From a virus: a DNA stretch of 45,653 bases. The DNA is taken from the IMG/VR virus record IMGVR_UViG_3300042802_000002; one strand, 5' to 3'. Every line of letters starts with the position of its first letter. Position 1 is the first letter of the stretch. The notes beneath the pieces were generated by a model. The model ran no database searches, was not told where the DNA came from, and was given only the letters and a program-made list of their open reading frames with translations. The position numbers were made by a program, and so were the translations under genes. Positions 1 through 32,394 of this stretch are shown here, piece after piece.

Positions 1-127
1 TACATATATCGTCCTCTACATAGGAATAGTGCAGCTTTTTTACTACAAAATTAGGAGATTGGAGTAAATGCTCGACCACTATCCTGTCAAAGCTAGAAAT
101 ATCCATAGTGCCGTCCTCTGATACTGT
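1..127. repeat. Terminal direct repeat, left copy (identical to 45527..45653)
   Basis: Direct comparison: bases 1..127 read the same as 45527..45653. A minus-strand ORF (45426..45632) runs through the repeat, so the left copy holds a truncated duplicate of its 5' end. Confidence 0.9.
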
Positions 128-207
128 CCTCCTATCAAATACTATTACCGTTTCCTTCTCTGAACTGTCTAAACTACCATCTGACACTATTTCCATACCA
201 TTGTATT

Positions 208-453
208 TCATTTGCTAAAACCGTCCTTTTCTCCTATAAGCCCAAATCCTTCTGCGACTCTATATAATTCGTCGCCTATATATCTTATATTATTAGCAAA
301 TACAATCCCACATTTAGGGCAAATCTTCATTCGTTTTGTTTTCCCATCTTCAAACTCCTGCCAAAATTGCTCGTATTTATCTATTTCATCTGTGTAATGA
401 CAATTTGGACACCTTGCCACCATAATTGGTTGTACAGGATCTAATTTACTCAC
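208..453 (-). CDS. Small zinc-ribbon protein (CPNC...CPKC), hypothetical
   Basis: 81-codon ORF with a GTG start; AGGAGG lies 9 nt upstream on the minus strand; two CxxC pairs. Confidence 0.5.
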   Translation of the reverse strand: MSKLDPVQPIMVARCPNCHYTDEIDKYEQFWQEFEDGKTKRMKICPKCGIVFANNIRYIGDELYRVAEGFGLIGEKDGFSK

Positions 454-767
454 TTGCTAAAACCTCCTATATACTATTATTCTTATTTTTTTACTGCTTA
501 AAGGTATATTTCCTTATGTTAACCCTTTTATAAGGTTATTCTATATAAATACACCCCTTTTAAAAGCTAAAAAATATATATTTGAGTGATTTCAAACCTC
601 CACTTTGTAAAAAAAGCCTTTAGAAATAGCTCATAGGATTATTTGGGGTATATATATTATGTGTGTGAGCGGAGTCGACACCCCTCCCCCCCTACCTTCA
701 TTTATATTGCTGAACTGAAAAACTTCGCAAAACATAGATTTTACGAAACTTTTACCTTCATTATAGC

Positions 768-1226
768 TTATTCTTCTTCTATTTCCTCAACATCAACTGC
801 ATTTTGCCGTTGCTCAATCATATCTACCGCCTTTGATAGCTGTAGAAGGGTATCATCATCCAATTCCTCCAGTTTATCCACTTTATTATGGTCTATTGAT
901 CCAGATACCTGATGCTGATGTTCTACTCTGTCTGCCATTCCTCCAAAGTTTTTAAGCCAGAAGATTGCTCCCGTGGTATTTCGCCCAGGAAGGAATAATT
1001 GTTGCTCCCAAAGACTAATAATAGTATTTTCAGCCTTTTTTACTGCTGTTGAGTAATCGGACTTATTTTTATAATTATAGAAGGTTGTTCTATCTATATC
1101 CAAAAACCTGCAGAGGTCAACAATGCTGACGAAGTTAATTTTTTTATCCTTATCAAGTTTAGCCTGAAAATAATCATCTATAGCTTTTTCTAATTCTTCA
1201 GGAGTATATTTTGGTGGTCTTGCCAT
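768..1226 (-). CDS. Putative terminase small subunit (N-terminal HTH-like region, C-terminal IFWLKN motif)
   Basis: 152-aa ORF; ATG preceded by AGGTGA; N-terminus MARPPKYTPEEL and C-terminal GAIFWLKN resemble small-terminase families as I remember them. Not verified by search. Confidence 0.45.
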   Translation of the reverse strand: MARPPKYTPEELEKAIDDYFQAKLDKDKKINFVSIVDLCRFLDIDRTTFYNYKNKSDYSTAVKKAENTIISLWEQQLFLPGRNTTGAIFWLKNFGGMADRVEHQHQVSGSIDHNKVDKLEELDDDTLLQLSKAVDMIEQRQNAVDVEEIEEE

Positions 1227-1574
1227 AATTTCACCTACTTAATATTAATAAGATAATCTTAATAACTATATTAATCTCTATTTCAAAAGAAAAGAAAATA
1301 TAAAAGAAAAGAAAAGTTCTTTCTCTTTCCGCAAATCTTTTTTGAAGATCTGCTACAAGAGTCAGAGAAAAACCTGCTCAGGTTATCGCTTACCTGAAAT
1401 AATTTTCTGCTTGTTGCTGCAGGTCCTATCTCTACTATTATTATATGCTTTTATATTGTTAATTGCAAAATATAGCTTTATATATGTAATTCAAATAACT
1501 AAGAATAAAAGAGTATTCTGGAGGTTTTACGGCTATAATCTAATCTAATCAGTCTATAAGCTAGAATATAGATG

Positions 1575-1603
1575 TTGAAGAACTGCTCTACTATCTATAT
1601 AAT
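1575..1603 (+). promoter_or_regulatory. Sigma-A-like promoter (TTGAAG, 17-bp spacer, TATAAT) for the plus-strand cassette
   Basis: Hexamers read directly with a 17-bp spacer, about 45 bp upstream of the 1648 start codon. Confidence 0.4.
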
Positions 1604-1647
1604 GAAGTTGCAAGAAGGAAAAAACAAATTTCAAGGAGGAATTAATA

Positions 1648-2028
1648 ATGATTGAAAACAAGCAGAAAATTATTGAATTGGCGGACAGGATAGACAAGGA
1701 ATTAACTTCATTAGTCTATGAAATACAGCAGTTAGACAGCCACGAAGAACAAACAGTATTAAATGTTATTAATGAAATAGGTTTACCTGATTTGGAAGAA
1801 CTAGAATATCAATTCGGCAGACTTGCAGAAATGGCTGACAAAGTAGAAGTAATAGGCGGGTATCAAGTTTGGGTTGACTCTTATCACGAATTGAATGTAA
1901 TTGTTAATAATCAGCATATAAGGACAGAGGGAACTATGGAAAGAGTTTTCGACAGACTACTAATGAAGATTGAGGATAGACAAACCGCAAAAAACATCTT
2001 TAAATGGTACTTTGATAAAACATATTAG
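1648..2028 (+). CDS. Hypothetical protein
   Basis: 126-aa ORF; AAGGAGG 8 nt upstream of the ATG. Confidence 0.6.
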   Translation: MIENKQKIIELADRIDKELTSLVYEIQQLDSHEEQTVLNVINEIGLPDLEELEYQFGRLAEMADKVEVIGGYQVWVDSYHELNVIVNNQHIRTEGTMERVFDRLLMKIEDRQTAKNIFKWYFDKTY

Positions 2029-2070
2029 ACTGAAAGTTAATTCTTGCTGATCTTCACAGGTCAGCAGGTA

Positions 2071-2117
2071 CTAGCTTTTAAGCTAGAAAAAATCTAAAAG
2101 GAGAGTGTTAAATAATG
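2071..2117 (+). repeat. Intergenic repeat copy 1: palindrome CTAGCTTttAAGCTAG followed by a conserved Shine-Dalgarno/start context
   Basis: About 47 nt, nearly identical to 2608..2654, ending at the ATG of the downstream gene. Confidence 0.7.
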
Positions 2118-2564
2118 AAAATTACAAAGTTTGATATCAGGTTAATCAAGGAGAACGAGGTGGATTATCAGGCAATAGATAACGAGAAAATCACAAACCC
2201 AATAGTCGCAGCTGAATTCTTCAACAAGGTACTAGAAATGGATATCAGAGGTCAGGAAGTGTTAGCAATGGCGACATTAGATGTCAAAAATAATATAACT
2301 GGAGTTTTTGAGGTCCACAAAGGCGGCCTTTCTTCTTCAATTGTAGAACCTAGAACAGTTTTTCAGCGGGCAATAATGCAAAATGCTGCAGGTATAGTTT
2401 TGTGCCATAACCATCCAAGTGGCGACCCAATGCCGAGCGGCGATGATGTCAGCATAACAAAAAAATTAGTCAAAGGTGGCGATATATTAGGAATTAATGT
2501 TGTAGATCATATTATTATAGCTGATAGTCAATATATCAGTTTCAAGGAAAAAGGTATAATCTAA
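2115..2564 (+). CDS. RadC-like JAB/MPN domain protein
   Basis: 149-aa ORF; C-terminal region LCHNHPSGDPMPSGDDVSITKKLVKGGDILGINVVDHIII matches the RadC-like JAB signature (HxHPSG ... S..D ... DH). Confidence 0.75.
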   Translation: MKITKFDIRLIKENEVDYQAIDNEKITNPIVAAEFFNKVLEMDIRGQEVLAMATLDVKNNITGVFEVHKGGLSSSIVEPRTVFQRAIMQNAAGIVLCHNHPSGDPMPSGDDVSITKKLVKGGDILGINVVDHIIIADSQYISFKEKGII

Positions 2565-2607
2565 TCTTAACGGTTAACTCTTGCAGGTCCTGAAAGATCT
2601 GCAGGAG

Positions 2608-2654
2608 CTAGCTTTTAAGCTAGAAAAAAATTAAAAGGAGAGTGTTAAATAATG
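2608..2654 (+). repeat. Intergenic repeat copy 2 (same palindrome plus Shine-Dalgarno/start context)
   Basis: Near-identical to 2071..2117; lies immediately upstream of the 2652 start. Confidence 0.7.
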
Positions 2655-3038
2655 ACTACTTATGAAAAGAAATTGGACGGCCACAAAATCACTCAAGAAT
2701 ATAAGGACTTTATGAGTATAGCAAGAACAGAGGACCACCAAATTGATGTATTAACCACTTTAATGGATAAGGTAGAAGTTGAGGAAGGTTATAGGCTTTA
2801 CAGAGGATTTAAGCCTGAATTTCAGGAAAGCAATTGGCCAAAAGTTATGCTACAGCTTTTTGATTTTGAAAGAGTTTGGGAATGGACCACAGCCTACAGG
2901 GAAGTATTTATAAATAAAGATTTAAAAGCAAAGTTCACTTATATTGAAGGAGATTTAATTTTAAAAGTATTTGATAACAAAAAAGACTTTGAAAAAGATT
3001 TAAAAGAAGCAGGCGAATTTTACGCAAAAGGTTATTAG
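2652..3038 (+). CDS. Hypothetical protein
   Basis: 128-aa ORF with the conserved upstream AAGGAGAG element. Confidence 0.6.
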   Translation: MTTYEKKLDGHKITQEYKDFMSIARTEDHQIDVLTTLMDKVEVEEGYRLYRGFKPEFQESNWPKVMLQLFDFERVWEWTTAYREVFINKDLKAKFTYIEGDLILKVFDNKKDFEKDLKEAGEFYAKGY

Positions 3039-3046
3039 AATTTATC

Positions 3047-3080
3047 CAGCTTGTCAGGGTCCCACTACCTGGCAGGCTGC
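3047..3080 (+). terminator. Stem-loop (12-bp stem with two G-U pairs) followed by a T-rich tract; possible attenuator or terminator
   Basis: CAGCTTGTCAGG pairs with CCTGGCAGGCTG; T-rich sequence follows. Confidence 0.35.
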
Positions 3081-3125
3081 ATTAAGTTTTAATTTTTCTC
3101 AAATCAAATGTAAAGGGGTGAAAAA

Positions 3126-3293
3126 ATGCAAGAATACAGCCAAATGTTATTAGAAAAGTTGGTCCGACATATTAACGATTTAGGTAGGACGGGACAAGCT
3201 GCAGAATTAACAGAAGTGCTGCAGGTCCTGGAGGAAATACAGGTCCAGGCCGAAAGCATACAGCCTGAATATTACATTAATAAGGGGGCGTAA
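3126..3293 (+). CDS. Hypothetical small protein (55 aa)
   Basis: ORF below the 60-aa track cutoff; AAAGGGG upstream of the ATG; fills the gap before the next gene. Confidence 0.45.
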   Translation: MQEYSQMLLEKLVRHINDLGRTGQAAELTEVLQVLEEIQVQAESIQPEYYINKGA

Positions 3294-3295
3294 TT

Positions 3296-3490
3296 ATGAA
3301 TATGAAGCGGAATCCATTGTTTGACGAGTTTACAGGTCGCTGCAGGCCACGATATTTCGTAGTTGACAACAAGGGTTTGATATTAGCAAAAGCAGCCACG
3401 AAAGCAGAAGCGGAAAGAAAGCGAATGATCTGCGGAGAGGGTCAGGTTATGCGGCAGGATAATCTATTCCAGGAGGGGGGCAGAATATGA
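3296..3490 (+). CDS. Hypothetical protein
   Basis: 64-aa ORF; GGGGG 6 nt upstream of the ATG. Confidence 0.5.
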   Translation: MNMKRNPLFDEFTGRCRPRYFVVDNKGLILAKAATKAEAERKRMICGEGQVMRQDNLFQEGGRI

Positions 3491-3603
3491 GAAAACTCAA
3501 AGATCTGATTATATACTTGTTGGCTGCAGTTGTCGGTGGCGGGTTTTGGTACTATCTTATAGTAGTTTGGGCTGATTATGTGGCGACTTATCCAAATTAT
3601 TAA
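3486..3603 (+). CDS. Small hydrophobic (single transmembrane segment) protein, 38 aa
   Basis: ATG overlaps the upstream stop (ATGA); hydrophobic core LIIYLLAAVVGGGFWYYLIVVW. Confidence 0.3.
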
Positions 3604-3688
3604 GCAGGAGTTGAGCAGATAATCAAGAATTAATAATTAAGCGGCCAGTTAACCGCTGGCTGCACAAAATCAAAAGGAGGAAATTATA

Positions 3689-4282
3689 ATGACTAAGCGT
3701 GAAAAAACTATGATGGAGAAGGTCCTAGAGGAAGCAAAAGAGCAGGGGTTTGAATGGTATAAAGATAATGCAAGTCCATTATTAAGTATAGACGAATTAT
3801 TAATGCAGGCAGAGGAAGAAGAATGGCAAGAAAGCAACGACCCAGCAACAGCAGAAATGACTATAGCTGATTTTGATAAGGAAATAGGAAAAGCATATAT
3901 CTACAAGGTTGACGACAGAGGTTATCTAAGGGACAGAGTTGCAGCAATATGGAAGCCAAAAAAAGATATAATTATCAATGAATTGGAAGGTCGCAGAATT
4001 ATTTTGACTGCTGATGAATTAGAAGAAATAGACCCTGAGTTATTAGATTGGATTACATCAAGCAAATACTGGGGCAGAGGTTATGACTATACACCCGACC
4101 GCTCAGAAGCTATTGTTGAGTTAAGATTTGATGAAGAAGGCGTCAGATATTACGGAGATTTTGAAGGCAGTAGCACACAACCAGGAGAAGATCCTTCTCA
4201 AAATCAAGGTCCTTGGGGGGGAGATAGTTGGGAAGATTGGACCATTGAACAGCTAAAAAAATATTATGAATTAATAAGATAA
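3689..4282 (+). CDS. Acidic hypothetical protein (D/E-rich)
   Basis: 197-aa ORF; AAGGAGG upstream; strongly acidic composition. Confidence 0.6.
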   Translation: MTKREKTMMEKVLEEAKEQGFEWYKDNASPLLSIDELLMQAEEEEWQESNDPATAEMTIADFDKEIGKAYIYKVDDRGYLRDRVAAIWKPKKDIIINELEGRRIILTADELEEIDPELLDWITSSKYWGRGYDYTPDRSEAIVELRFDEEGVRYYGDFEGSSTQPGEDPSQNQGPWGGDSWEDWTIEQLKKYYELIR

Positions 4283-4387
4283 TAACTCTATCAGCCTGGG
4301 TAAGCTGCAAAACTACCCGCTCTACAAGGTAAAAGTTTTTCTTTAGTGGGTAATTATACCTACTTTTTAATTATAGGAGGTGGAAAA

Positions 4388-4621
4388 ATGAAGGTATTAA
4401 GATATTTTGACGGCGAATATAAAATCGCTATATCAGAATTAACAACAGACCAAGCGGCCAGAATATTAACAGCACTAGATCAGGTAGACAGCGAATTAGC
4501 AGATGAAATCAGAACAGCAATTAAGGAGGGCAAAAATGCACGAAATCACAAAAAAAATCAAAGAATATATGGAGGAAAGAAATCTCAACCAGCAGGAAAT
4601 GGGAAAGTTAATCGGCGTTAG
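4388..4621 (+). CDS. Hypothetical protein (3' end overlaps the next gene)
   Basis: Start chosen at the internal ATG preceded by AGGAGGTGG; the track ORF 4346..4621 extends further upstream. Confidence 0.45.
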   Translation: MKVLRYFDGEYKIAISELTTDQAARILTALDQVDSELADEIRTAIKEGKNARNHKKNQRIYGGKKSQPAGNGKVNRR

Positions 4622-4829
4622 TAAAACTCATATGTCAAAGATAATGAACGGCCACCAGGACCCAGGCAGCAGAATGACCAATAAATATTATAAACTACCA
4701 GGTATCAAAGAAAGAGAAGCTATAGAACAGACAAAACAGGTAATAGATGATTTATGGTTATCAGGCCAGATTGATGAGCCTGCAGCCAAAAAATTGGTTA
4801 AGGCTTTGCAATATGACAGCGATAACTAA
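4536..4829 (+). CDS. XRE-family helix-turn-helix DNA-binding protein
   Basis: Start chosen at the ATG preceded by AAGGAGGG; HTH-like segment NQQEMGKLIGVSKTHMSKIMNG. Confidence 0.6.
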   Translation: MHEITKKIKEYMEERNLNQQEMGKLIGVSKTHMSKIMNGHQDPGSRMTNKYYKLPGIKEREAIEQTKQVIDDLWLSGQIDEPAAKKLVKALQYDSDN

Positions 4830-4883
4830 TTATATAATCATAACTGGCGGGTTGTTGGTGGTGGCTGCTATACTCAAAAAGAA

Positions 4884-4917
4884 AGGACCAGGGGCTTAAT
4901 CCTGGTCTTTTTCTTTG
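4884..4917. terminator. Bidirectional intrinsic terminator between the convergent plus cassette and the minus early block
   Basis: 9-bp stem (AGGACCAGG / CCTGGTCTT) flanked by an A-run upstream and a T-run downstream. Confidence 0.5.
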
Positions 4918-5078
4918 TTCTCCTGTTTTTCTAATAGATCATTAATATTGTCGGCTTCCTTCTTCTCCATTTGGTGCAGCTCCCAAAACCCTTCTAGTCC
5001 TTTCCTGCGGGCTTGTTCTCTAGTTAGGTTATTCCAGCGTGTAATATTAACTACCTCCTTTGCTACCACCTGCAGCAA
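4896..5078 (-). CDS. Hypothetical protein (uncertain)
   Basis: 60-aa ORF whose 3' end overlaps the terminator hairpin. Confidence 0.3.
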   Translation of the reverse strand: MLQVVAKEVVNITRWNNLTREQARRKGLEGFWELHQMEKKEADNINDLLEKQENKEKDQD

Positions 5079-5125
5079 TAAACATTACTATAAAACATAT
5101 CATTACTAACCAGCGGGCTATTTCA

Positions 5126-5686
5126 TTAATCATCTTCTGCTGCTACCTTCTCCGCAGCTTCCTCTGCTATCCTGTCAATCATATAATTAGGCAGTCCTGG
5201 ATATTCTTCTCTCAAATCTTCCTTAATTTTTGTAAGGTCCATTAGTCCTCCTTTGCTAACTTCATCAGGTATCGGATCAACGCCCGCTCTTTTTTCTTGA
5301 GTTCCTGCCTTCTCTTTGCTAACTTTTTGTATTCTTTCAGCTTGATTACTTTTTTGTTCATTTCCCGTAACCTCCTGATATAATACATCATAATATCCAT
5401 TAATACTGTCTATCTGTTCATCAGTAATAACAGTAACCACCGACCAACCTGACCACAATCCGCTGCTATCAGGTGTCAATACTGAAAACACCAGCTTTTC
5501 ATTAATTTCGCCTGTAAAAAATAAGTAAAACGATTGATTTTCTATTACATACGGCTTAATCCCCTGCCTTAACTTAGGGAGAAAGCGGGTAGATATATAA
5601 CCCGCTATTTTTGTTTTCTTCCAAAAAACCTCTACTCTTTCAGTCCATCTATTTTGAGCGTGATTTGTAACTCTGATTTTGAACAT
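5126..5686 (-). CDS. Hypothetical protein
   Basis: 186-aa ORF in the co-directional early block. Confidence 0.6.
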   Translation of the reverse strand: MFKIRVTNHAQNRWTERVEVFWKKTKIAGYISTRFLPKLRQGIKPYVIENQSFYLFFTGEINEKLVFSVLTPDSSGLWSGWSVVTVITDEQIDSINGYYDVLYQEVTGNEQKSNQAERIQKVSKEKAGTQEKRAGVDPIPDEVSKGGLMDLTKIKEDLREEYPGLPNYMIDRIAEEAAEKVAAEDD

Positions 5687-5976
5687 TATTCGTCCTCCCT
5701 GCTCCCGAATAGGCCCCCTTTTCTTGCTTTGATTTTCTCTTTCAAAGATAAATCGTACAGAAGAATAAAAACATCTTCTATTCGTCTTTTCATTTCGATT
5801 GAGATTTTCTCCAGACTATAACCTTCCTCCCACATCTTAATTACCCTTGGTATTTGTTCCTGCCTCCAACTAAAATCTAATTCTACATCATCTAATAAAG
5901 CTATATAGTCATTCTTCATATTTAATTTTTCTGATCTACTTCTGGTTATCTTACTACCTACAATTTTTTCCGCCAC
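5686..5976 (-). CDS. Hypothetical protein
   Basis: 96-aa ORF that abuts the next gene. Confidence 0.55.
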   Translation of the reverse strand: MAEKIVGSKITRSRSEKLNMKNDYIALLDDVELDFSWRQEQIPRVIKMWEEGYSLEKISIEMKRRIEDVFILLYDLSLKEKIKARKGGLFGSREDE

Positions 5977-5990
5977 TTAAATCACCTTTT

Positions 5991-6443
5991 TCAAAATGGG
6001 ACATCAAAATCATCTACATTAAAGTTATCATCAAATTCCTGGTCTTGTTCTTCTCCTTTCAAAGTTTTTTCTACTCTTTCTTTATGCTGATCTGATACTG
6101 ACGGCTGCTTTTCCTGATTATTGTTATTTGCAAAATCAAGAAATCTGACATTATCAGCTTTAACCTCTGGATTAATATAAGTGCGATTATCCTTCTTTGA
6201 TTTTCTAATTTGAAGCGACCCGTCAATGCCTACAAGACGCCCCTTTCCTAAGTGTCTGGCACAATTTTCAGCTAATCCTCGCCAGGTAACTATGTTAATG
6301 AAATCTACATCTCTATCGCCGTCCCGATTGGTATAATTTCTTTCACAGGCTATCCGAAAATTACACACAGGAGTACCATTTCCTGTATATCTAAGTTCAG
6401 GATCTTTTGTCAGCCGGCCAACTAAACAAATTCTATTCAACAT
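5991..6443 (-). CDS. ssb: Single-stranded DNA-binding protein
   Basis: 150 aa; N-terminus MLNRICLVGRLTKDPELRYT and acidic C-terminal tail DDFDVPF are typical of bacterial/phage SSB. Confidence 0.85.
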   Translation of the reverse strand: MLNRICLVGRLTKDPELRYTGNGTPVCNFRIACERNYTNRDGDRDVDFINIVTWRGLAENCARHLGKGRLVGIDGSLQIRKSKKDNRTYINPEVKADNVRFLDFANNNNQEKQPSVSDQHKERVEKTLKGEEQDQEFDDNFNVDDFDVPF

Positions 6444-6756
6444 CTTCTACATTCCTCCATTTTCCATAATTATTGTCAGCTATATCCTTAATATCATCTA
6501 ATAGTTCATTTAAAACTTCCCTTGGTGCATTTTCTGGTGTAAATTCTATCATTTCTGATACACCTTCAAACTCTTTGTCCATTTCTAAATGTTCATCTAA
6601 TACATTTTCGATAAAATCTTCAACTCTTGATAACTCTTTCAATGCCCGTGCTATAGGCTCGTGTTCTTTTCCTGGTGGTAAAGTTAAATCACTACTTGAA
6701 GTCTGCAGCACTTCCCTAATGTCATCTATTAAATCATCAAAGTTTACTTTCATCAT
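6433..6756 (-). CDS. Acidic hypothetical protein
   Basis: 107-aa ORF. Confidence 0.55.
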   Translation of the reverse strand: MMKVNFDDLIDDIREVLQTSSSDLTLPPGKEHEPIARALKELSRVEDFIENVLDEHLEMDKEFEGVSEMIEFTPENAPREVLNELLDDIKDIADNNYGKWRNVEDVE

Positions 6757-7115
6757 TCATCAACTCCTTTAGCTTTATTAATTGCTTTTCTCAATTTTCT
6801 TTCCCACTCATGTTTTTTACATGTGAATCCATTGTAAGAATCACACTCACAAGGTAAGTTTTCAACTATTTTTAAGCTATATTCTGCAACATTCAACAGC
6901 TCAGGTGCAGCTGTCATCAAATCAGCATTAGCAATCGCCTGTTCTTTCTGCTCTTTTTTGTAAGTTTCAATCATATCTACATATTTGAAACTATTATGAG
7001 CTAAATGGTTGCCAGGGCTTTCTATTGCATCCCCCATCCTTATTTCAATATCTCCATCCTCAATAACCCACTTCCATGGTCCTGGTGTGTGTTTACTCAT
7101 AGTTTTCTCCTCCAT
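6753..7115 (-). CDS. Hypothetical phage protein (HTPGPW ... LMTAAPELL motifs)
   Basis: 120-aa ORF; motif pair that I recall as recurring in phage proteins of unknown function. Confidence 0.55.
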   Translation of the reverse strand: MEEKTMSKHTPGPWKWVIEDGDIEIRMGDAIESPGNHLAHNSFKYVDMIETYKKEQKEQAIANADLMTAAPELLNVAEYSLKIVENLPCECDSYNGFTCKKHEWERKLRKAINKAKGVDE

Positions 7116-7299
7116 TCCCCTTCACAATTTTATAATTATTTTCCTGCAGCCATTGGTGAAATTTATATGCTTCACATTCTTTTCTGCAAAAACTCTTAGC
7201 GAAACTTTTGCCTAATTCATTTTCTTTATCATTATCAATTAGTTTTTGCATGCCACAACCAATATCTCTGCAAAATTCTCTACTCTTATATTCAGGCAT
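7093..7299 (-). CDS. Small Cys-rich protein
   Basis: 68-aa ORF containing a CxxxxC pair and a CxxxC pair. Confidence 0.5.
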   Translation of the reverse strand: MPEYKSREFCRDIGCGMQKLIDNDKENELGKSFAKSFCRKECEAYKFHQWLQENNYKIVKGNGGENYE

Positions 7300-7448
7300 T
7301 AACTGACCCCCTTCCCTGTTAATCTTTTCACTTCTTCTAATATCTCGCCTGGCTGCATATTACTAATATCTATTGTCGCCTTAATTTTCTTGCCGCCTTT
7401 TTTATAATTCAACTCTAATGTTTCTTTATTAGTTTTAGCGTGGATCAT
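7299..7448 (-). CDS. Hypothetical small protein (about 49 aa)
   Basis: Below the track cutoff; ATG overlaps the upstream stop and its stop overlaps the next start. Confidence 0.4.
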   Translation of the reverse strand: MIHAKTNKETLELNYKKGGKKIKATIDISNMQPGEILEEVKRLTGKGVS

Positions 7449-7975
7449 AAACCCCACTCCTTCAAAATAATTAGATCATCTTCTGGATAGTCGCAATCTT
7501 CCTCTGATAAAGTACCAGCTATTTTAATGCGATCCCACAAATCAGGCATTATAGTTATAGCTTTTTCATTATTTTTATTAATAAACAACCTAAAACTTTT
7601 GTCATAAGAAAATTCCATTGCCATTTGTTGAACAACTTGAAAATTTTCAACATCTTTAAAGCTGCAGCGTTCATGCAAGGTATAAGTAATACCATCAATA
7701 AGTCCTATCAAACGTTCCAACAAAAACTTGTAATTAGCAGTATAAAGATATATTATAATGTCAGATTTGATTTCTCTAATCCTTATAACTAAATCTATTA
7801 TCTGTTCAGGATAAAGCATTGGCTCTCCGCCAGTTAATATGATCTCGTCATAATCCTCAATAAAATTTAAGTTATCTTCTTCTCTGCCCTGACTAATAAG
7901 ACTTTCATAGTTGTTGCTACAGTAAGGACAATTTCTGTTACACTCAAATGTAGTTATAACTCTTGCTGACTTCAT
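7445..7975 (-). CDS. Small radical SAM (4Fe-4S) protein, NrdG/QueE-like
   Basis: 176 aa; CNRNCPYC (Cx3Cx2C) near the N-terminus and a TGGEP motif. Confidence 0.7.
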   Translation of the reverse strand: MKSARVITTFECNRNCPYCSNNYESLISQGREEDNLNFIEDYDEIILTGGEPMLYPEQIIDLVIRIREIKSDIIIYLYTANYKFLLERLIGLIDGITYTLHERCSFKDVENFQVVQQMAMEFSYDKSFRLFINKNNEKAITIMPDLWDRIKIAGTLSEEDCDYPEDDLIILKEWGL

Positions 7976-8131
7976 TTATTCCCCCTTAATTTGTTCTTTC
8001 AGCCGACTAACTTTCATCTTCAAGTTTTCATAATCCTCTTTTCTGTCGCCACCTATAGAGTGCCTGAGATAATTAACCTTCCTCTCAATATCAGCTAATA
8101 CTGATAATTCAGCTTCTGCCTTATCCCTCAT
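7976..8131 (-). CDS. Hypothetical small coiled-coil protein (about 51 aa)
   Basis: Below the track cutoff; tightly packed between two genes. Confidence 0.4.
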   Translation of the reverse strand: MRDKAEAELSVLADIERKVNYLRHSIGGDRKEDYENLKMKVSRLKEQIKGE

Positions 8132-8471
8132 TTTCTATCAACTCTGAATTTACATATTTGTTGCCGATAACCTCTAAATTATCTTCTTCAAAACAATACT
8201 CAATAAACCAATGATAAAATTCTGGCAATCCATCTTCACCAACTATTCTATAATCAGCGTTTCCTATACCCCACTCTGCTTTTATGAAATCCCCTTCATA
8301 TATTTCTTTGCCATTTTTATCTTTTAAACCGGTTGACTGCATTAATTCTGCCTTTGCTAAACTTTGAATTTCACCAAACTCATTCCACCATATCAAACCT
8401 TGTATATCTTTACCATGATATAACATTTCTTTGCTTATATCATTCCAAGCTCTGAATTTAATTTCTCTCAT
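8121..8471 (-). CDS. YopX-like phage protein
   Basis: 116 aa; N-terminus MREIKFRAW resembles the YopX family as I remember it. Confidence 0.5.
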   Translation of the reverse strand: MREIKFRAWNDISKEMLYHGKDIQGLIWWNEFGEIQSLAKAELMQSTGLKDKNGKEIYEGDFIKAEWGIGNADYRIVGEDGLPEFYHWFIEYCFEEDNLEVIGNKYVNSELIENEG

Positions 8472-8481
8472 TTTAACCTCC

Positions 8482-8661
8482 TTATAAATGAGCTATTAAA
8501 GCTATAATAAATATCAAACCTGCAATTCCTAACGGTATCCAGGTAGGAGATAACACCCACCACCAGGACCATTCAATATAACCTGTTAGCTTTAAAGTTA
8601 TAAATATTAATTCCAATGCTGACAAAAATCCTATTCCTGAACTATTATTGCTATCGCTCAT
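8482..8661 (-). CDS. Small membrane protein
   Basis: Start moved to the internal ATG preceded by GGAGG; hydrophobic segments. Confidence 0.45.
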   Translation of the reverse strand: MSDSNNSSGIGFLSALELIFITLKLTGYIEWSWWWVLSPTWIPLGIAGLIFIIALIAHL

Positions 8662-8926
8662 TTTTAACCTCCTTTTTGTACCTCCTAGTAACTGTCGATA
8701 CAGCAACACCATATATCTTTGCTATCTCTGTAAAGGTTAAATCTAAATCATTATGCAGCCTGACTATTTCACTATTAGTGAAAGGCTTTTTACGGCCACC
8801 ACTTGTTACTTTATGATCGTGCTGCAGAAAATCAAACGCTTCATCAACTGTTACTTCCTCCAGGACAGCGTATATAAGCAAGATTATGTTAATCCTTCTC
8901 TCGTCTGGAAAAGCATAATCTTTCAT
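8651..8926 (-). CDS. HTH regulator (sigma-70 region-4/ArpU-like C-terminus)
   Basis: 91 aa; C-terminal TFTEIAKIYGVAVSTVTRRYKK. Confidence 0.5.
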   Translation of the reverse strand: MKDYAFPDERRINIILLIYAVLEEVTVDEAFDFLQHDHKVTSGGRKKPFTNSEIVRLHNDLDLTFTEIAKIYGVAVSTVTRRYKKEVKNER

Positions 8927-9090
8927 TTGCTACCTCCTAAAATATATTTTTTAAATTTAACATTGAACAACAATTATTTTCCTCGTCCCACCAAGCACAA
9001 TTTTCTTTTTCGCATTTATATTCTTTATTGTTTATAATATTGTCAGCATTTATATTTTTATTATTAAATTTAAGTGGACATAATTTCATC

Positions 9091-9360
9091 TTATCCTCCT
9101 TTTTCTTCCTGTATTTTCACCACTTCCTCCAACGCTTCCAGCGGATCTGTTTTATCAGGACAGTAATCACACGGTAAATTATCATACCTTTTGTTATGCT
9201 TATAACACCATTCAACCGGTATCATAAACCCTTCCTTCTTGTGATAATAGTAAGCACAGGGGCGATCAAGCAAATACCTATGATATAAGCAATATTTGAA
9301 TTTGCTATCGCCAGGTATATGATTGTCGCACCCTGTAATCTCACATATTTTATAACTCAT
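9091..9360 (-). CDS. Cys-rich zinc-binding protein
   Basis: 89 aa with multiple Cys/His pairs. Confidence 0.5.
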   Translation of the reverse strand: MSYKICEITGCDNHIPGDSKFKYCLYHRYLLDRPCAYYYHKKEGFMIPVEWCYKHNKRYDNLPCDYCPDKTDPLEALEEVVKIQEEKGG

Positions 9361-9728
9361 TATCCAACTCCCTTAATAACTATTTCCACTCTCGGATTTT
9401 CTTTATCCACTTTGAATTTGTTGGTCCAGCCTTTATTTTGCTTCCAGCCGTCATTTTTTAGTCTGCCAGCCTTAACTAATCCGTCAAAAATAAACTTAAC
9501 TGCTGCAGCTATGTTATCTGGATCTTTTCTTTTATTTTTGCAGTACCAGGTAACCTCTAACTCTACAGCTTCATAGACTGGCAACTTCTTAGCAGGCCAC
9601 GCTACAGCATTAGTATTATCCTGTTTCATTCTTCTATAAGCCTGATAGTGTGATTTAGCAGCGTCTATTATTTCATTAAGCGAAGGTAACTCACCTTCTA
9701 TTACTAATTTTTCTGGCTCGTTTACCAT
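9360..9728 (-). CDS. rusA: RusA-like Holliday junction resolvase
   Basis: 122 aa; DPDNIAAAVKFIFDGLVKAGRLKNDG matches the RusA catalytic core pattern (DxDN ... K ... DaL.KAG ... DD). Confidence 0.7.
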   Translation of the reverse strand: MVNEPEKLVIEGELPSLNEIIDAAKSHYQAYRRMKQDNTNAVAWPAKKLPVYEAVELEVTWYCKNKRKDPDNIAAAVKFIFDGLVKAGRLKNDGWKQNKGWTNKFKVDKENPRVEIVIKGVG

Positions 9729-10081
9729 CTGCCACTATCCCCTCCCAGTAATATGTATTTAAAGAAATTTTTAACCTTCTCAAAAAAACCTTCTTCTTTA
9801 TCTTCTTGAATATGAATAACTCCGAATTTATTTTTTTGTTCAATAAAAGCCTTTTCTCTATCTTCATAAGCCTGTTTTCTTTCATCACTTAACCTGGCTA
9901 ATTCGGTATCAGGTAGATCAGCTTTAGCTTCTTTATATCTACGCCAAATTGTTGTCCTGCTGCAGCCAAATTCTTTTCCTACTTCCGAATAACTCATACC
10001 TGAAATATCAATAGCATTAACTAAATACGCTAGATCAGACTCTGAAAATTCAATTCTTTTTCCCATTTTGTCCTCCTTCAA
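9722..10081 (-). CDS. HTH DNA-binding protein
   Basis: 119 aa; SYSEVGKEFGCSRTTIWRRYKEA. Confidence 0.55.
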   Translation of the reverse strand: MKEDKMGKRIEFSESDLAYLVNAIDISGMSYSEVGKEFGCSRTTIWRRYKEAKADLPDTELARLSDERKQAYEDREKAFIEQKNKFGVIHIQEDKEEGFFEKVKNFFKYILLGGDSGRW

Positions 10082-10619
10082 TTAAATTACTATAACTATT
10101 TCTTAGCTGCTTAAACTTCTTTTTTAATCCTACGGGCAAATAATTTTCGTTAATTTCCTTATCAGTTATAGCTGCATATTCTTTCTTAAAATCATTTTTC
10201 ATATAAGATAGTTCTTTATCATCAGCTTTTGCTATAGCTGTCAATCCTCCAACCCCTCTGACTGCTAACTTTGTTCTCTTATCTAAACTATTCATAGCCT
10301 TTTCAGTACCGTATAATGCCCCGTGTACTCTTATTGCTCTTAACACCTTATCCCAGGCCTCACCTGGAAGTAATTTATCACCTGCTTTCAATTTCTCTAT
10401 TTCCTGGACCACTTCTCCAGCTGTCGGCGGCCAGGTAGGCTTATTAAGAATAAGTTTATCCACTACTGACTGCACTATTTCATAGTTATAACTGCTCAAA
10501 TAGCGGTGCCAGGCATTGACGGTTAACTTATCATCATCTTTATTTTCGCCAAATTCAAACTTCTTTTGATAAATACTGCTGATTAAAGTTAATACCTTAA
10601 AAGTCTGTTTCTTCTCCAT
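10050..10619 (-). CDS. Hypothetical protein
   Basis: 189-aa ORF. Confidence 0.55.
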   Translation of the reverse strand: MEKKQTFKVLTLISSIYQKKFEFGENKDDDKLTVNAWHRYLSSYNYEIVQSVVDKLILNKPTWPPTAGEVVQEIEKLKAGDKLLPGEAWDKVLRAIRVHGALYGTEKAMNSLDKRTKLAVRGVGGLTAIAKADDKELSYMKNDFKKEYAAITDKEINENYLPVGLKKKFKQLRNSYSNLIEGGQNGKKN

Positions 10620-11040
10620 CTTCTAACTCCCCGTAAAGTTCCTGTAGTCTTTGTGCTTTACTTTCCCCTCGGCTCTTAACGCTGATCTGATTAAGATAAC
10701 TTTCAAACTTTGTCGAAAATAGTGTTACTGGCCGCAAATATTTTTCCATTTCCTTATTACCTATCCATTCGACTGCCTTCTTATCAATCACATCTTTAAA
10801 ATCCTGCAGCCTAAAACCTTCATTCCACCTGGCTTTAATCATCTTTCTAGTTTTTTGAGTGCTGGATCTATACCTCGTACCTAATCGTTCATTGAGATAG
10901 CTGACTATTTCATCATAAGGAATGTTACTTCTGTTATAAGTGCAGCCTTTTTCATCTAATTTGTTGCCACAATAAGGACAATACTCAAAACCTTCAAATT
11001 CTAATCCTTCTAAGTTTTTAGTCCATTCACTACACGCCAT
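10597..11040 (-). CDS. Replication-associated protein with phage conserved C-terminal domain (Phg_2220_C-like) and N-terminal zinc ribbon
   Basis: 147 aa; CPYCGNKL ... C ribbon and the MIKARWNEGF ... YLRPVTLFSTKFESYL pattern. Confidence 0.5.
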   Translation of the reverse strand: MACSEWTKNLEGLEFEGFEYCPYCGNKLDEKGCTYNRSNIPYDEIVSYLNERLGTRYRSSTQKTRKMIKARWNEGFRLQDFKDVIDKKAVEWIGNKEMEKYLRPVTLFSTKFESYLNQISVKSRGESKAQRLQELYGELEDGEETDF

Positions 11041-11306
11041 TAAATACCACCACTTTTATTTAATTTTTTTATTCTTTCATCTAACGCTTTTTCTGCTTCT
11101 TTTGCAAATTCTCCATCTAATATATCTTCCTCTAATGCCTTCCAAATAATATAAGCAGTTGGACTAAAACCTAAATCAATAAACATTTCTTCATCATTAC
11201 CGTTTTGGCTTGGTATATAATCATTTATGAAATATTCAAACCAATCTTTTTCTAAATCTTTTGGCTGCTTCATATTCAATTTATCCATTATTTCAAAATA
11301 TTCCAT
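11040..11306 (-). CDS. Hypothetical acidic protein
   Basis: 88-aa ORF. Confidence 0.5.
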   Translation of the reverse strand: MEYFEIMDKLNMKQPKDLEKDWFEYFINDYIPSQNGNDEEMFIDLGFSPTAYIIWKALEEDILDGEFAKEAEKALDERIKKLNKSGGI

Positions 11307-11449
11307 TATCTACCACCTGCCATATGTTGCCAATATTTTTGAGCCTTTTCATCACTATAAGTTAATTCTCTTTCATAACATTTTCTACACTTACCAGCCC
11401 GACCTTCTTTAATAACTGTTCCACATTCGCATATTTTTTCTTTACTCAC
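11306..11449 (-). CDS. Small zinc-ribbon protein (GTG start, about 47 aa)
   Basis: Below the track cutoff; CxC ... CxxC; the GTG overlaps the upstream stop (GTGA). Confidence 0.35.
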   Translation of the reverse strand: MSKEKICECGTVIKEGRAGKCRKCYERELTYSDEKAQKYWQHMAGGR

Positions 11450-11670
11450 CTGTTCCACTTCCTCTGATAATCGTCATTTGGCTGTTCCATTGAGTTTATA
11501 TACTCGTCATATTCCTCTAAAATAGCAATCACATCATCAGCACTTTTTCCTGTGATTTCATCAGTCGCCAGCATTTCTACATTTTTATTAAGTAGTTTAT
11601 CAAAAATTTTCTGTAAATTCTTATCCATTTTTACCTCCTTGAAGATGAAGCAACACTCAAATATATTCAA
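11446..11670 (-). CDS. Hypothetical protein
   Basis: 74-aa ORF. Confidence 0.5.
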   Translation of the reverse strand: MNIFECCFIFKEVKMDKNLQKIFDKLLNKNVEMLATDEITGKSADDVIAILEEYDEYINSMEQPNDDYQRKWNR

Positions 11671-11698
11671 ATATTACTTCATCTTTATATTTATGAGT

Positions 11699-11977
11699 TT
11701 AAATCATATCAAGTAACCTTTTTATATTTTCGCTAGGATTTGAAGAACGCTTATTATCTATATTCCTATAATTACTATCTAAAAGTTTAGTCATTTCTCT
11801 ATCAAAAATAAATTTCATAAATGCCATTTTCTCAGTTTTTAATTTATCGGCAGTATAACCAAAATCTAACTCATTATTTTCTTTTCTTTCTGCTATATAC
11901 ACAATATTTCTAATATCGTCTTTCAAAACTTTCTTTTCGCCTTCATCATTAACTTTTACAATTTGATATTTACTCAT
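11699..11977 (-). CDS. Hypothetical protein
   Basis: 92-aa ORF. Confidence 0.5.
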   Translation of the reverse strand: MSKYQIVKVNDEGEKKVLKDDIRNIVYIAERKENNELDFGYTADKLKTEKMAFMKFIFDREMTKLLDSNYRNIDNKRSSNPSENIKRLLDMI

Positions 11978-13037
11978 TATCTTCCTCCTCTAAAGTTTTC
12001 TCAAAATCTTCATAGACTTCTGCCATTTCCATATCGTCATATTGATTTAATTCTTCTTCTGTCGGTCCAGCGTCCTTATCTCTCAATGAATTTCTAAGTA
12101 TCAAGTATTCTTCTTCATCTAAAGAATTAATACTTTTTGCATTAAAGCTGGATAATAAATTAAACAACATATTTTTCTTTTTCTGATCGTCCCCAATTAA
12201 CTCTTTAATTTCAGCTTCTCTTTCAGTAGTTTCTCTTTTTTCTTTCTTCTTAGGTTTATCTTTTTTTGCTTTTTTCTTCTTCTTAGTCATTTGATAGCGT
12301 TCCATTGTCAGTTTAGCTGCCTGTTTTAAATCATCTTGTTTCGCATTATCGACTAACCATTTCAGATAACCTGTATTAACTTCTTCAAGTTTCTTTCCTT
12401 GAAACTTACCAAACCATAGTACCGTTTTTTCAGGATTTTCAGAGTTCACCTTGCTATTTGTACCTTTAGGCTTACTAGTACCCCTAGAATTATCAATAAT
12501 TACATCTTCTTCTGGTATATCTTTGATTTCCTGTGTATCTGGATCATACCCTGATATTTCTTCTGCTGATGTAATAGATATATTGTAGGCTAATCTAATT
12601 ACCCTGTTAGTTGCTCTTGTTCTAGCCATAGCTTTGAGGTCTTTATCGCTACCGCTAATCATACGGTTACAATCCTGCGGACTTGCTTCCCCATACTCTA
12701 TATACGGCCTGTTATCTGGTGAACTTTCCTTCCACAACAAGGCTTTGTATTCAAAGTGTCTTTTGTTATAATCCATATTGACTGCTTCCAGCTGAATACT
12801 AACTGGTGGATCATCACTTTCGTGTGCATTTCTCTTTAATCCGCTGCTTGTTACATAAGCATTACTTCCTAATACGGTCAAGTCCCCAAAAAACGGGTCT
12901 AATCCATACTGTGCTGCAATATAAGCTAACTGCTGCTTATCCTGGCTGGATAATTTCTGCGGCCATAATCCTTCGCTTTCTCCTTTTTGTACTAATTCTT
13001 TTGATTTATCAGCAACATTCACAACATCATTTGCCAT
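11970..13037 (-). CDS. Putative recombination/DNA-metabolism protein with C-terminal LWFGKFQGKKL (DUF3820-like) motif
   Basis: 355 aa; C-terminal motif resembles the exonuclease-associated FGKYKG domain; N-terminal family not recognised with certainty. Confidence 0.4.
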   Translation of the reverse strand: MANDVVNVADKSKELVQKGESEGLWPQKLSSQDKQQLAYIAAQYGLDPFFGDLTVLGSNAYVTSSGLKRNAHESDDPPVSIQLEAVNMDYNKRHFEYKALLWKESSPDNRPYIEYGEASPQDCNRMISGSDKDLKAMARTRATNRVIRLAYNISITSAEEISGYDPDTQEIKDIPEEDVIIDNSRGTSKPKGTNSKVNSENPEKTVLWFGKFQGKKLEEVNTGYLKWLVDNAKQDDLKQAAKLTMERYQMTKKKKKAKKDKPKKKEKRETTEREAEIKELIGDDQKKKNMLFNLLSSFNAKSINSLDEEEYLILRNSLRDKDAGPTEEELNQYDDMEMAEVYEDFEKTLEEEDNE

Positions 13038-13450
13038 TAATTAACCTCCTTAGACTGTCTTTTATAATCCATATACTCCATATGTTGTAGCAAGTGTAAA
13101 CACAATTGCTTATAATCATCTACACCATTTGCACCTAATAAAGCGTCGCAAGTTGAACAACTGCCATACCAAACATAAGTCCTTATTAAATTATCTGGCT
13201 CATACCAAAAACCACCCTGACTTATTATATATATGTGTGTTCCTTGATAACTTCCAGTATTAATTGTGTGTATAAGTTTTAAATTTTCATAATCTAAATA
13301 TGGATTAATAACTTCATCAATAACTAATTCCAATAAATCTTTGTATTCAAAAGGGGTAAACCAATCGTCTCGTTCTCCTAATATTTCAACAATTTTATTT
13401 TCCAGTCTTTTTTCATTTTCAGCCCACGCTTTATTAAACTTTTTTATCAT
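13037..13450 (-). CDS. Hypothetical protein
   Basis: 137-aa ORF. Confidence 0.55.
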   Translation of the reverse strand: MIKKFNKAWAENEKRLENKIVEILGERDDWFTPFEYKDLLELVIDEVINPYLDYENLKLIHTINTGSYQGTHIYIISQGGFWYEPDNLIRTYVWYGSCSTCDALLGANGVDDYKQLCLHLLQHMEYMDYKRQSKEVN

Positions 13451-13459
13451 CTGGACCTC

Positions 13460-14011
13460 CTATACTGTTTTAACCTTAAAACTTTCCCCTCGGTCCACTA
13501 CTTTTAAACCTTCCACAAATTCGCCAGTTTCAGTATTAACTACCCTGCCATCATCAAGTATCTTATAGTTTCCGCTATCCTTAACAATTTTCTTGAGTGT
13601 TCGTTTGTCAACATCTTCCTTCACTCTTACAGCGTCGGGTATCTTCTCTTTGACGGTATCCAGCAATTCATCTTCATACTGCCATTTAGGCCGTCTTTTT
13701 CTAAACTGCAGCTTACCGAACGGTAATGAGTGAGTTTTCATTGCAGGATCTTCTTCTCTTAATTGTTGAGCATACTCAAATAACATATTCTTAAAGTTAT
13801 TAATCTTCTTTTCTAATGAAGAAGTTTCATTCTCCAGCCAATTATTAACCTGGTCTATTTGTCTTTGAGCAAGTGCTTCCTTTTCTTCCACCTGATCCTC
13901 TAATTCCTTAATCTTCTGCAAGGCCCAACAGGCCTTATCGTCCGTGTCAACTTTGAATTTTTCCTGTTCTTCTTCCTCCTGGGCTTCCTTTTTAACCAAT
14001 TCTGCTGTCAT
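13460..14011 (-). CDS. Coiled-coil protein (possibly Gam-like; weak)
   Basis: 183 aa; N-terminal heptad-rich region. Confidence 0.5.
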   Translation of the reverse strand: MTAELVKKEAQEEEEQEKFKVDTDDKACWALQKIKELEDQVEEKEALAQRQIDQVNNWLENETSSLEKKINNFKNMLFEYAQQLREEDPAMKTHSLPFGKLQFRKRRPKWQYEDELLDTVKEKIPDAVRVKEDVDKRTLKKIVKDSGNYKILDDGRVVNTETGEFVEGLKVVDRGESFKVKTV

Positions 14012-14031
14012 CTTATTCCTCCTTTTTATAA

Positions 14032-14229
14032 TTACATTAGACTATAAACTTCATATTTCATATTATTCCAATTGCCAAAAACTTTTTGAATTGTAGCTGT
14101 ACAAGGAACTTTGATTTTATTTTCTTTTTTCCATTTCCTATAATAATTCATTGTCATAGTTTCTATTTGAGGATATTTTCTTAATTTTTTTATACACTTT
14201 TCGTAAGTCCAATAAATACTACGACTCAT
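14032..14229 (-). CDS. Hypothetical protein
   Basis: 65 aa; GGAGG upstream. Confidence 0.45.
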   Translation of the reverse strand: MSRSIYWTYEKCIKKLRKYPQIETMTMNYYRKWKKENKIKVPCTATIQKVFGNWNNMKYEVYSLM

Positions 14230-14237
14230 ATTCCTCC

Positions 14238-14393
14238 TTAAAGTTTCTTTACTTTTTCTATATCCCTTTCAGAATATTTTTTACCTCTAGCACCTGCCTG
14301 CTGATAATGCTGGAATACAGAGTGCACTGCCTTATTACTATACTTGTTTCTAATCCTGTTTCTAATAATTTTGCGAGTTAAAACTTTAGGCAT
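14238..14393 (-). CDS. Small basic protein (about 51 aa)
   Basis: Below the track cutoff; GGAGGTG upstream of the ATG; K/R-rich. Confidence 0.4.
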   Translation of the reverse strand: MPKVLTRKIIRNRIRNKYSNKAVHSVFQHYQQAGARGKKYSERDIEKVKKL

Positions 14394-14434
14394 AATTACA
14401 CCTCCTTAATCTACTAAAACAAAACCAATAGGTA

Positions 14435-14638
14435 TTAAAAAATATCTTCATAGGTTACCTCTAGGCCTCTATCCTGTAAGATACTTAATATTTTATTTAT
14501 TTCACTTTGCTTGAAATCAGTTTTGCCATTAATTTTATTCGACATAGTTTTATAATCAATTCCTATCATTTCTGCTGTTTTTCCTTCTGTTAATCCTGCT
14601 TCTACTATTTTACCTTTTAATTTATAATTTGTTCCCAT
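14435..14638 (-). CDS. Cro/CI-type HTH regulator
   Basis: 67 aa; HTH-like TAEMIGIDYKTMSNKINGK. Confidence 0.6.
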   Translation of the reverse strand: MGTNYKLKGKIVEAGLTEGKTAEMIGIDYKTMSNKINGKTDFKQSEINKILSILQDRGLEVTYEDIF

Positions 14639-14700
14639 AAAAGTGTAATTTCACCTCCGATTAATATAATTAATTTCGTTTTTGTGAACTTGTTAAATAC

Positions 14701-14729
14701 ATTTTAATATACTTTTTGGTGGTTGTCAA
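14701..14729 (-). promoter_or_regulatory. Near-consensus sigma-A promoter on the minus strand (TTGACA, 17-bp spacer, TAAAAT)
   Basis: Read as the reverse complement of 14701..14729; sits upstream of the Cro-like gene. Confidence 0.45.
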
Positions 14730-14826
14730 GGGTTTTTTAGGAAAAAATATTACTTTTTGCAGAAAACAGTTAACTTTTTATACATATCTTCTTAAATCAC
14801 TCTAAATTTATGTTATTATTTTTGAA

Positions 14827-15126
14827 TTAATTGTCATTTTCCAATTCATTGTACTTTTTATCTATCTCTTTGAATGTTCTATTTAATATTTTACTAATGT
14901 TTTTTGGAGTTTCTTTTTTGCTGATTAATTCCATTAATAATTCTTCTTCCTCTGGTGTCCAATTAGTTTCCTTGCGATAATATTTACATAATTTCTTTTT
15001 CTTTGGAAAGTGAGCTGCATTATTGTACTTTTCGCAATAGTAACCATATTTGAAGTATTTGCATTGACTGCATAGTGCTTTACCTCGCTTATATCCTTTT
15101 TTAGTTTTTTCTATTCTTCCTTGCAT
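14827..15126 (-). CDS. Cys-rich protein with Myb/SANT-like C-terminal motif; first gene of the early block
   Basis: 99 aa; CSQCKYF ... C and WTPEEEELL ... ILNRT. Confidence 0.5.
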   Translation of the reverse strand: MQGRIEKTKKGYKRGKALCSQCKYFKYGYYCEKYNNAAHFPKKKKLCKYYRKETNWTPEEEELLMELISKKETPKNISKILNRTFKEIDKKYNELENDN

Positions 15127-15239
15127 TGATGTACCGGTATTCTTTTTCGCTATTTTCTACTCTCCTTTCATTAAAAGTGTAAAAGTTATCTAGTTATCCT
15201 TATTATAAAGAACTTTAATACTAATTAATCTTAGTTCAG

Positions 15240-15946: not shown

Positions 15947-15949
15947 TAT

Positions 15950-16318
15950 CTATTTAACTTGTTCAGGCTTTTTAAGTTCTGTACCCAATCCGACCATAAT
16001 TTCGCCGATAATAGGCTCATACTGTGTGCCAGGTATGGTTTCTTTCATAGCGTCAGCAGCCTTTTTGTAAACTACATCTTCTAAAGTTGTTTCCTCCATC
16101 ACGGTTTTCAAAAAAACTAAAACAGCTTCATTCATGAAATCTTCATCTCCTTTCGTAAATACCCTTATTATTAATTGAGTTAGCCACATAGGCAATTCCT
16201 CACGATCTAAACTATCTGCATAATCTTTGAGTATTCTGTTTGCTTTCGCTATATTTTCTACAACTATTTGCTGCTCTGGTGTCAAATTGCTTAAATCTCT
16301 GCTGATAGATAGGCTCAT
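15950..16318 (-). CDS. Hypothetical protein (last gene of the late operon)
   Basis: 122-aa ORF. Confidence 0.55.
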   Translation of the reverse strand: MSLSISRDLSNLTPEQQIVVENIAKANRILKDYADSLDREELPMWLTQLIIRVFTKGDEDFMNEAVLVFLKTVMEETTLEDVVYKKAADAMKETIPGTQYEPIIGEIMVGLGTELKKPEQVK

Positions 16319-16865: not shown

Positions 16866-16874
16866 AGTTACCTC

Positions 16875-17243: not shown

Positions 17244-17245
17244 TC

Positions 17246-26674: not shown

Positions 26675-26686
26675 ATGCTCACCTCC

Positions 26687-27277: not shown

Positions 27278-27288
27278 AATACACCTCC

Positions 27289-27738: not shown

Positions 27739-27750
27739 AATATCCCTCCT

Positions 27751-30539: not shown

Positions 30540-30549
30540 ATAATCACCC

Positions 30550-32391: not shown

Positions 32392-32394
32392 CTT

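Follow-up and report, generated by a model that had tools for sequence, protein, structure and literature searches.

A 127-nt terminal duplication that very probably marks the assembly closure of a complete 45,526-bp tailed-phage genome

The viral record IMGVR_UViG_3300042802_000002 was analysed over its whole length of 45,653 nt (hereafter the window), and all phage modules were found to be present, namely terminase, portal, capsid, tail, lysis and replication (Table 1). The genes lie mostly on the minus strand, and the unit that is left after one copy of a terminal duplication has been trimmed measures 45,526 bp with a GC content of 34.6%. Along the minus strand the small terminase gene (1226..768) is followed by a 315-nt gap, an 81-aa zinc-ribbon-like ORF (453..208) and a 103-aa gene that spans the junction of the two window ends. 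Then come a gene resembling Thoeris anti-defence 2 (Tad2-like, 45457..45143), small ORFs together with a tRNA-Tyr (43833..43745), a 145-aa ORF (43015..42578) and the large terminase gene. Beyond the large terminase lie the genes for the portal (SU10_portal), the major capsid protein (SU10_MCP in the gene tables of relatives), the adaptor and the tail, and these are followed by an ORF of 2607 aa, an M15 peptidase that is taken to be the endolysin, and replication and recombination genes (Mu Gam, G39P, SSB).

Several features of this gene set were recorded in their own right. The portal, major capsid and adaptor proteins (34879..39536 and 29565..30098, minus strand) match families of SU10, a Kuravirus-type podovirus, in a genome of only 45.5 kb. 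The giant ORF is located between the tail and lysis genes and gave no PHROG match and no Pfam family in the gene tables; the versions of 2494 and 2360 aa in other strains match PF18763 (ddrB-ParB). A 613-aa protein (30550..32391) matches many beta-propeller/WD40 families and a tail-fibre PHROG. Additionally, an 83-nt direct repeat on the plus strand (2036..2118 and 2573..2655, 86% identity) carries an inverted repeat and a ribosome-binding site in each copy and ends at the start codons of a RadC-like gene (2115..2564) and of the next gene (2652..3038); it is probably a duplicated regulatory leader. At the DNA level no cultured-phage relatives were found beyond patches of 131-280 nt. A contig identical to the window over 30 kb comes from JGI sample 3300006633, which is one of a series of metagenomes from hydraulically fractured shale in which Halanaerobium dominates (PMC5497025); Halanaerobium is a possible host.

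Table 1. Coordinates of the features discussed, given as positions in the 45,653-nt window.
Feature	Position	Strand	Remarks
Left overlap copy	1..127		single-copy sequence in the genome; identical to 45527..45653
Right overlap copy	45527..45653		redundant; trimming gives a 45,526-bp circle
103-aa gene, 5' part	1..211	-	start codon at 211; circular ORF
103-aa gene, 3' part	45426..45526	-	includes the stop codon; circular ORF
Polymorphic site	128		C in the window, T in strains of samples 3300013016 and 3300013018
Small terminase candidate (P22 gp3-like)	768..1226	-	PF16677 GP3_package 1e-13, 51.7 bits, cut-off 29.4
Giant ORF, 2607 aa	17246..25069	-	no PHROG match, no Pfam family in gene tables
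Cut site of k141_11122, a 141-nt terminal overlap	19793..19933		within the 2607-aa gene
Large terminase	40964..42577	-	phrog_2 2.9e-29; PF03237 Terminase_6N 1.7e-07
tRNA-Tyr (anticodon GTA)	43745..43833	-	in the variable inter-terminase stretch
Thoeris anti-defence 2-like (Tad2-like) gene	45143..45457	-	PF11195 1.2e-24, above cut-off
41-nt leader repeat	45422..45462, second copy 45108..45148		85% identity; motif search 2 matches vs 0.02 expected

The stretch between the two terminase genes (42578..45526 plus 1..767, minus strand) holds about ten small genes and the tRNA, and is mosaic between strains. The Tad2-like gene lies directly downstream of the junction gene, and the gene callers on other contigs use a start that gives 90 aa (45415). 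Together with its neighbouring genes it is replaced in five related contigs (L010, L012, L021, L025 and L026). Similarly, the 81-aa ORF (208..453) is replaced in L012, and an extra PDDEXK_5 gene is found within the 454..767 gap of L027. The inter-terminase stretch looks like a hypervariable island of accessory and anti-defence genes within the packaging module. The 315-nt non-coding gap itself, which follows the small terminase gene, has a GC-rich element, GGGGTATATATATTATGTGTGTGAGCGGAGTCGACACCCCTCCCCCCC, although the genome is otherwise AT-rich, and the alignments of several relatives break within the gap at 615..679. An ORF at 43500..43787 overlaps the tRNA-Tyr, and gene callers prefer a shorter version of 75 aa. 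Two small genes in succession are immediately preceded by the 41-nt leader repeat, which on the minus strand has an AAGGAG ribosome-binding site at its end. The repeat falls where the alignments of relatives break (45413/45421), beside the junction gene, and may be a shared leader that acts as a recombination boundary for gene cassettes.

The small terminase had been proposed in the initial annotation as a candidate lying upstream of the genes at 43.0-45.6 kb, and this proposal held in both respects. Its Pfam match is above the curated cut-off and is joined by matches to two terminase small subunit PHROGs (phrog_606, 2.6e-18; phrog_309, 1.5e-15), and the gene is located upstream, and on the same strand, of those genes and of the large terminase. 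A search of the candidate against solved structures gave no match. Among solved structures, the large terminase matched T4 gp17 only weakly by sequence (E about 1e-3); over part of its length it is 28-34% identical to the nearest records of cultured or deposited phages. In one related contig (L028 2940..4967; JGI 3300036940, Ga0377182_002450) the large terminase is a 675-aa protein with intein and Hint matches (PF14890, PF07591, PF13403); the large terminase of the window (534-537 aa) has no intein.

The two ends of the window form a direct repeat that is 100% identical over 127 nt. This agrees exactly with what had been annotated, and the duplication is the sole large repeat in the window. 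When prefixes and suffixes of the window were compared at all lengths, 127 was the only length at which they agreed besides the trivial case of a single base. Outside the two ends the 127-mer occurs nowhere in the window, on either strand, and a repeat scan of the window revealed no internal duplication and no other direct repeat longer than 83 nt. An exact match of this length in 45 kb cannot be due to chance. The duplication counts as a DTR by the CheckV-type criterion (PMC8116208), with a length of 127 nt, two copies only and normal complexity.

After circularisation the junction is covered by one intact ORF of 103 aa on the minus strand, which starts with the ATG at 211, runs through base 1 to base 45526 and stops at 45426, so that the 127-mer sits wholly within it. 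The initial annotation had described a gene at 45426..45632 running through the repeat. That ORF does exist in the linear window (minus strand, 68 aa), but it is the 3' part of the 103-aa gene, read from an internal ATG. The complete gene was called by gene callers at internal positions of two other contigs (L027 9721..10032 and L029 11016..11327), and the ORF was intact in all eight relatives with full coverage. In most relatives the substitutions within it fall mostly at the third codon position (e.g. 0/0/4, 0/1/5, 1/1/6 and 1/1/6 for the three positions), which indicates a protein-coding gene under purifying selection. Searches of Pfam and PHROG gave no match for the 103-aa product. The gene forms a conserved island between strain-variable segments, the alignments of relatives breaking at 45413/45421 on one side and at 238/459 on the other.

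We used contigs from IMG/VR, JGI metagenomes, ENA and Logan to follow the sequence through the junction, and mapped the fetched loci on the doubled genome. A 170-nt string in which the whole 127-mer is flanked by 20 unique bases on one side and 23 on the other was matched exactly inside the IMG/VR contigs L001 and L002. In total, 13 distinct contigs were collinear through the junction, and in each of them (k141_11122, described below, and 12 others) the 127-mer was single and interior. In all loci that contain the start of the 127-mer the preceding 16 bases are those of window 45511..45526, and in all loci that contain its end the next bases are those of the window from 128 onwards; none of the 13 crossing contigs leads from the 127-mer into foreign DNA. 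The near-full-length relatives measure 44.8-45.2 kb, and those of 44,885 and 44,807 bp carry the junction at a distance of about 9.6 and 13 kb, respectively, from an end. The 44,885-bp relative showed no terminal overlap of its own and is a linear, near-complete contig. A second strain, approximately 93-94% identical to the window, is represented by two full-length contigs, Ga0373124_0093 (45,171 bp) and k141_44203 (45,213 bp). Their lengths differ by 42, which equals 141 - 99, and both would fit a single circle of 45,072 bp if the former assembly had closed it with k=99 and the latter with k=141.

An independent assembly of the same genome was found via the exact small terminase protein. This contig, k141_11122 (ENA ERZ27245766), has a MEGAHIT-style name with k=141 and a total length of 45,667 bp, i.e. 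45,526 + 141. By arithmetic, its end was expected at window 19793 and its start at 19933, in the gene of 2607 aa, and both positions were confirmed: the 3' end of the contig cuts this gene after 1759 codons, and the cut product at position 1 corresponds to the last 895 residues of the giant protein of the window. When the contig was rebuilt from the overlapping loci L048, L029 and L045, with 0 conflicts, its prefix equalled its suffix over exactly 141 nt, leaving a unit of 45,526 bp. After reverse complementation and rotation this unit differed from the window by 1 mismatch in 45,526 bases (window 31450). The mismatch falls in the gene for the 613-aa beta-propeller/tail-fibre protein. The junction-spanning 170-nt string of the window occurs once in k141_11122, at contig position 19784. 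The comparison of the two assemblies thus indicates that the length of the overlap tracks the k of the assembler (141 vs 127) and that its position is not fixed. The earlier view of the window as a closed genome of 45,526 bp was borne out by this contig and by the 13 collinear ones, and the same two lines of evidence support the advice to read its features on a circular map.

The length of the repeat equals a k of a common assembler. The largest k of SPAdes and metaSPAdes is 127. Terminal repeat lengths peak at assembler k values (PMC8116208, legend of Extended Data Fig. 3), and contigs from circular templates are described in the same paper as broken at a random location, leaving a repeat of length k. 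This k-length overlap of circular contigs has been described repeatedly (PMC8116208, PMC5923482, PMC7969357), and in one case a bacterial genome from SPAdes was circularised via trimming of its identical 127-bp ends (PMC7969357).

The position of the cut is probably not random, as it abuts a polymorphic site. The base at window 128 was read from the 12 bases that follow the anchor 90..127 in 17 loci, and was T in L005, L006, L011, L022 and L027 and C in the rest. In an alignment of 14 relatives over 45400..260, the segment 45511..45653 was nearly invariant among strains, and polymorphic sites were found to its left at 45465, 45486, 45495, 45508 and 45510. An assembler that builds de Bruijn graphs up to k=127 would follow the circular path and print its starting k-mer again at the end. 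With window 128 polymorphic, the preceding 127-mer would be a branch vertex in the k=127 graph, and the circular path would be cut there. We infer that the window was made by such an assembler at k=127 and that the SNP at 128 segregates in the window's own sample; position 128 is the probable branch point that fixed the cut. This reading as a whole, i.e. a k=127 closure overlap at the ends of a complete 45,526-bp tailed-phage genome that was cut at SNP 128, is in our judgement very likely to be correct.

Contig ends were also mapped around the genome. Some are far from the junction, at 8418, at 19793/19933 and at about 32 kb. Others are near it, at 45487 (L006), about 45392 (L012), 239 (L013), window 86 (L025) and window 105 (L026). 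None of the related contigs examined ends at the borders of the repeat (1/45527 or 127/45653). The end of L005 at window 155 was set aside, as it is a storage boundary only and the contig continues in L011, L022 and L027. Within the exact strain, a JGI contig of 45,646 bp, Ga0079285_100014, matches the window at 100% identity over 30 kb, shifted throughout by 47 bases. A look-up of the cut gene confirmed that it ends at 45599; its start at 45480, and hence an overlap of 120 nt, was extrapolated from its length and this fixed shift. An overlap of 120 nt is even and matches no standard k, and a merged assembly is one possible origin. A Logan contig of the identical strain, SRR5690627_61, ends at the polymorphic site 45465; run SRR5690579 contains the strain as well. 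With these, three of the four break points in the exact strain lie within about 190 bp (45465; 45599/45480; 45527/45653), one of them extrapolated. This clustering is not chance.

The cluster could mean that, although the overlap itself is an artefact, 45465..45653 marks a real physical discontinuity of the DNA, either a pac cleavage region, a short terminal repeat embedded in coding sequence or another terminus. Apart from the clustering in the identical strain, the location of the region about 0.6-1.2 kb downstream of the small terminase gene would suit this explanation. However, branches in a de Bruijn graph are not created by physical ends, and the polymorphic sites (the five listed above and 128) and the hypervariable boundary at 45413/45421 lie exactly there. 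Moreover, branching is demonstrated by a co-occurring variant contig from the same metagenome: the first 104 and the last 126 nt of L025 are exactly identical to L021, which is the signature of an alternative graph branch. Similarly, L006 starts directly after the polymorphic site 45486. A physical discontinuity is therefore judged very unlikely, and the evidence favours branching of the graph through strain variation, caused by dense polymorphism next to a hypervariable boundary. The ends of L006, L012, L013, L025 and L026 were likewise rejected as a physical terminus in favour of strain-variation branching. A branch caused by an attP site was also considered and is unlikely, as integrase families are absent from the gene tables covering the genome. 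A search of 185,579 species genomes with the large terminase returned no prophage copies.

Even less probable, and in our view extremely so, is that the window carries true short direct terminal repeats of 127 bp at these coordinates, of the T7, N4 or phiEco32 type, with both copies assembled. SU10 and phiEco32-like podoviruses have short terminal repeats. The matches of the portal, major capsid and adaptor to SU10-type families (PF23899, PF17236 and PF24175) speak for such repeats, as do the several contig ends within about 190 bp of the junction. Against them stands a length exactly equal to the top k of SPAdes. Both borders of the repeat are inside a conserved coding gene and not at a module boundary, and it would be very unusual for a true short terminal repeat to start and end within a conserved gene. 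None of the related contigs examined has an end at the borders and 13 cross them, and the nearby ends are accounted for by graph branching, as seen for L025/L021, L006, the Logan contig and SNP 128. In addition, MEGAHIT closed this genome at another place, with 141 nt. If a true terminal repeat had been collapsed, the MEGAHIT circle would likewise contain it once, and k141_11122 alone is thus not decisive against such a repeat. A false closure, in which a partial genome or a piece of a larger replicon is bounded by two copies of a dispersed 127-bp repeat or a concatemer was mis-assembled, is a general pitfall of completeness calls from terminal repeats (PMC9610469, discussion) but is scarcely conceivable here, given an independent assembly with the identical unit length, window flanks kept on either side of the 127-mer in 13/13 crossing contigs, relatives of 44.8-45.2 kb, the lack of internal duplication and the complete set of phage modules.

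Under the preferred explanation, a closure overlap of length k, the repeat has nothing to say on packaging. The initial annotation had regarded the duplication as the appearance of a circularly permuted or terminally redundant genome once assembled. The circular closure in that description stands; the type of packaging is not revealed by the repeat, since its length matches an assembler k, its position is that of a graph cut and any circular graph gives such an overlap. A circular graph arises from circular replicative DNA, concatemers, headful DNA, ligated cos ends or collapsed terminal repeats. As all these forms of DNA give the same k-length overlap, the repeat is silent on the real ends of the virion DNA. 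The terminases offer a separate and weak hint: a small subunit like P22 gp3 and a large subunit of putative T4 type point towards headful (pac) packaging, and DNA packaged in this way would be circularly permuted and terminally redundant. Judged from these protein similarities we give headful packaging about an even chance, and go no higher because the large terminase has no match above 34% identity in the phage collection and its gp17 matches are weak.

Very probably, then, the duplication arose in assembly as an artefact of a familiar type, and it marks a complete genome. Taken as a complete 45,526-bp genome, the window is useful for completeness calls and for comparisons of gene order. Annotation should start from a sequence without the last 127 bases, since the untrimmed window splits and truncates the 103-aa gene and counts part of it twice. 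The features at the two ends have to be read together, from the small terminase, the zinc-ribbon gene, the 103-aa gene and the Tad2-like gene on to the large terminase. The 127-nt repeat should not be cited as evidence of terminal repeats or of any packaging mode, and in itself it represents no new biology.

In comparison with known systems, the duplication resembles the closure overlaps of de Bruijn assemblers (127 for SPAdes, 141 for MEGAHIT) in its exact ends, its length equal to the final k, its single-copy sequence and a cut that varies between assemblies. Unlike the random closure cuts described in the CheckV paper, the cut is probably not random here: it abuts a SNP and lies within about 190 bp of the break points in two further assemblies of the strain. 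With the podoviruses T7, N4, phiEco32 and SU10 the window shares a direct end repeat in the range of about 100-200 bp and, for SU10, similar structural proteins; however, here the repeat lies within a conserved gene, relatives end elsewhere and the other assembly closes elsewhere. The circular assembly graph and the small terminase, which resembles P22 gp3, are reminiscent of pac phages such as P22 and SPP1, as would be a large terminase of putative T4 type (Terminase_6N), whereas the terminase genes are 3.7 kb apart here and the large terminase is very distant from the characterised enzymes.
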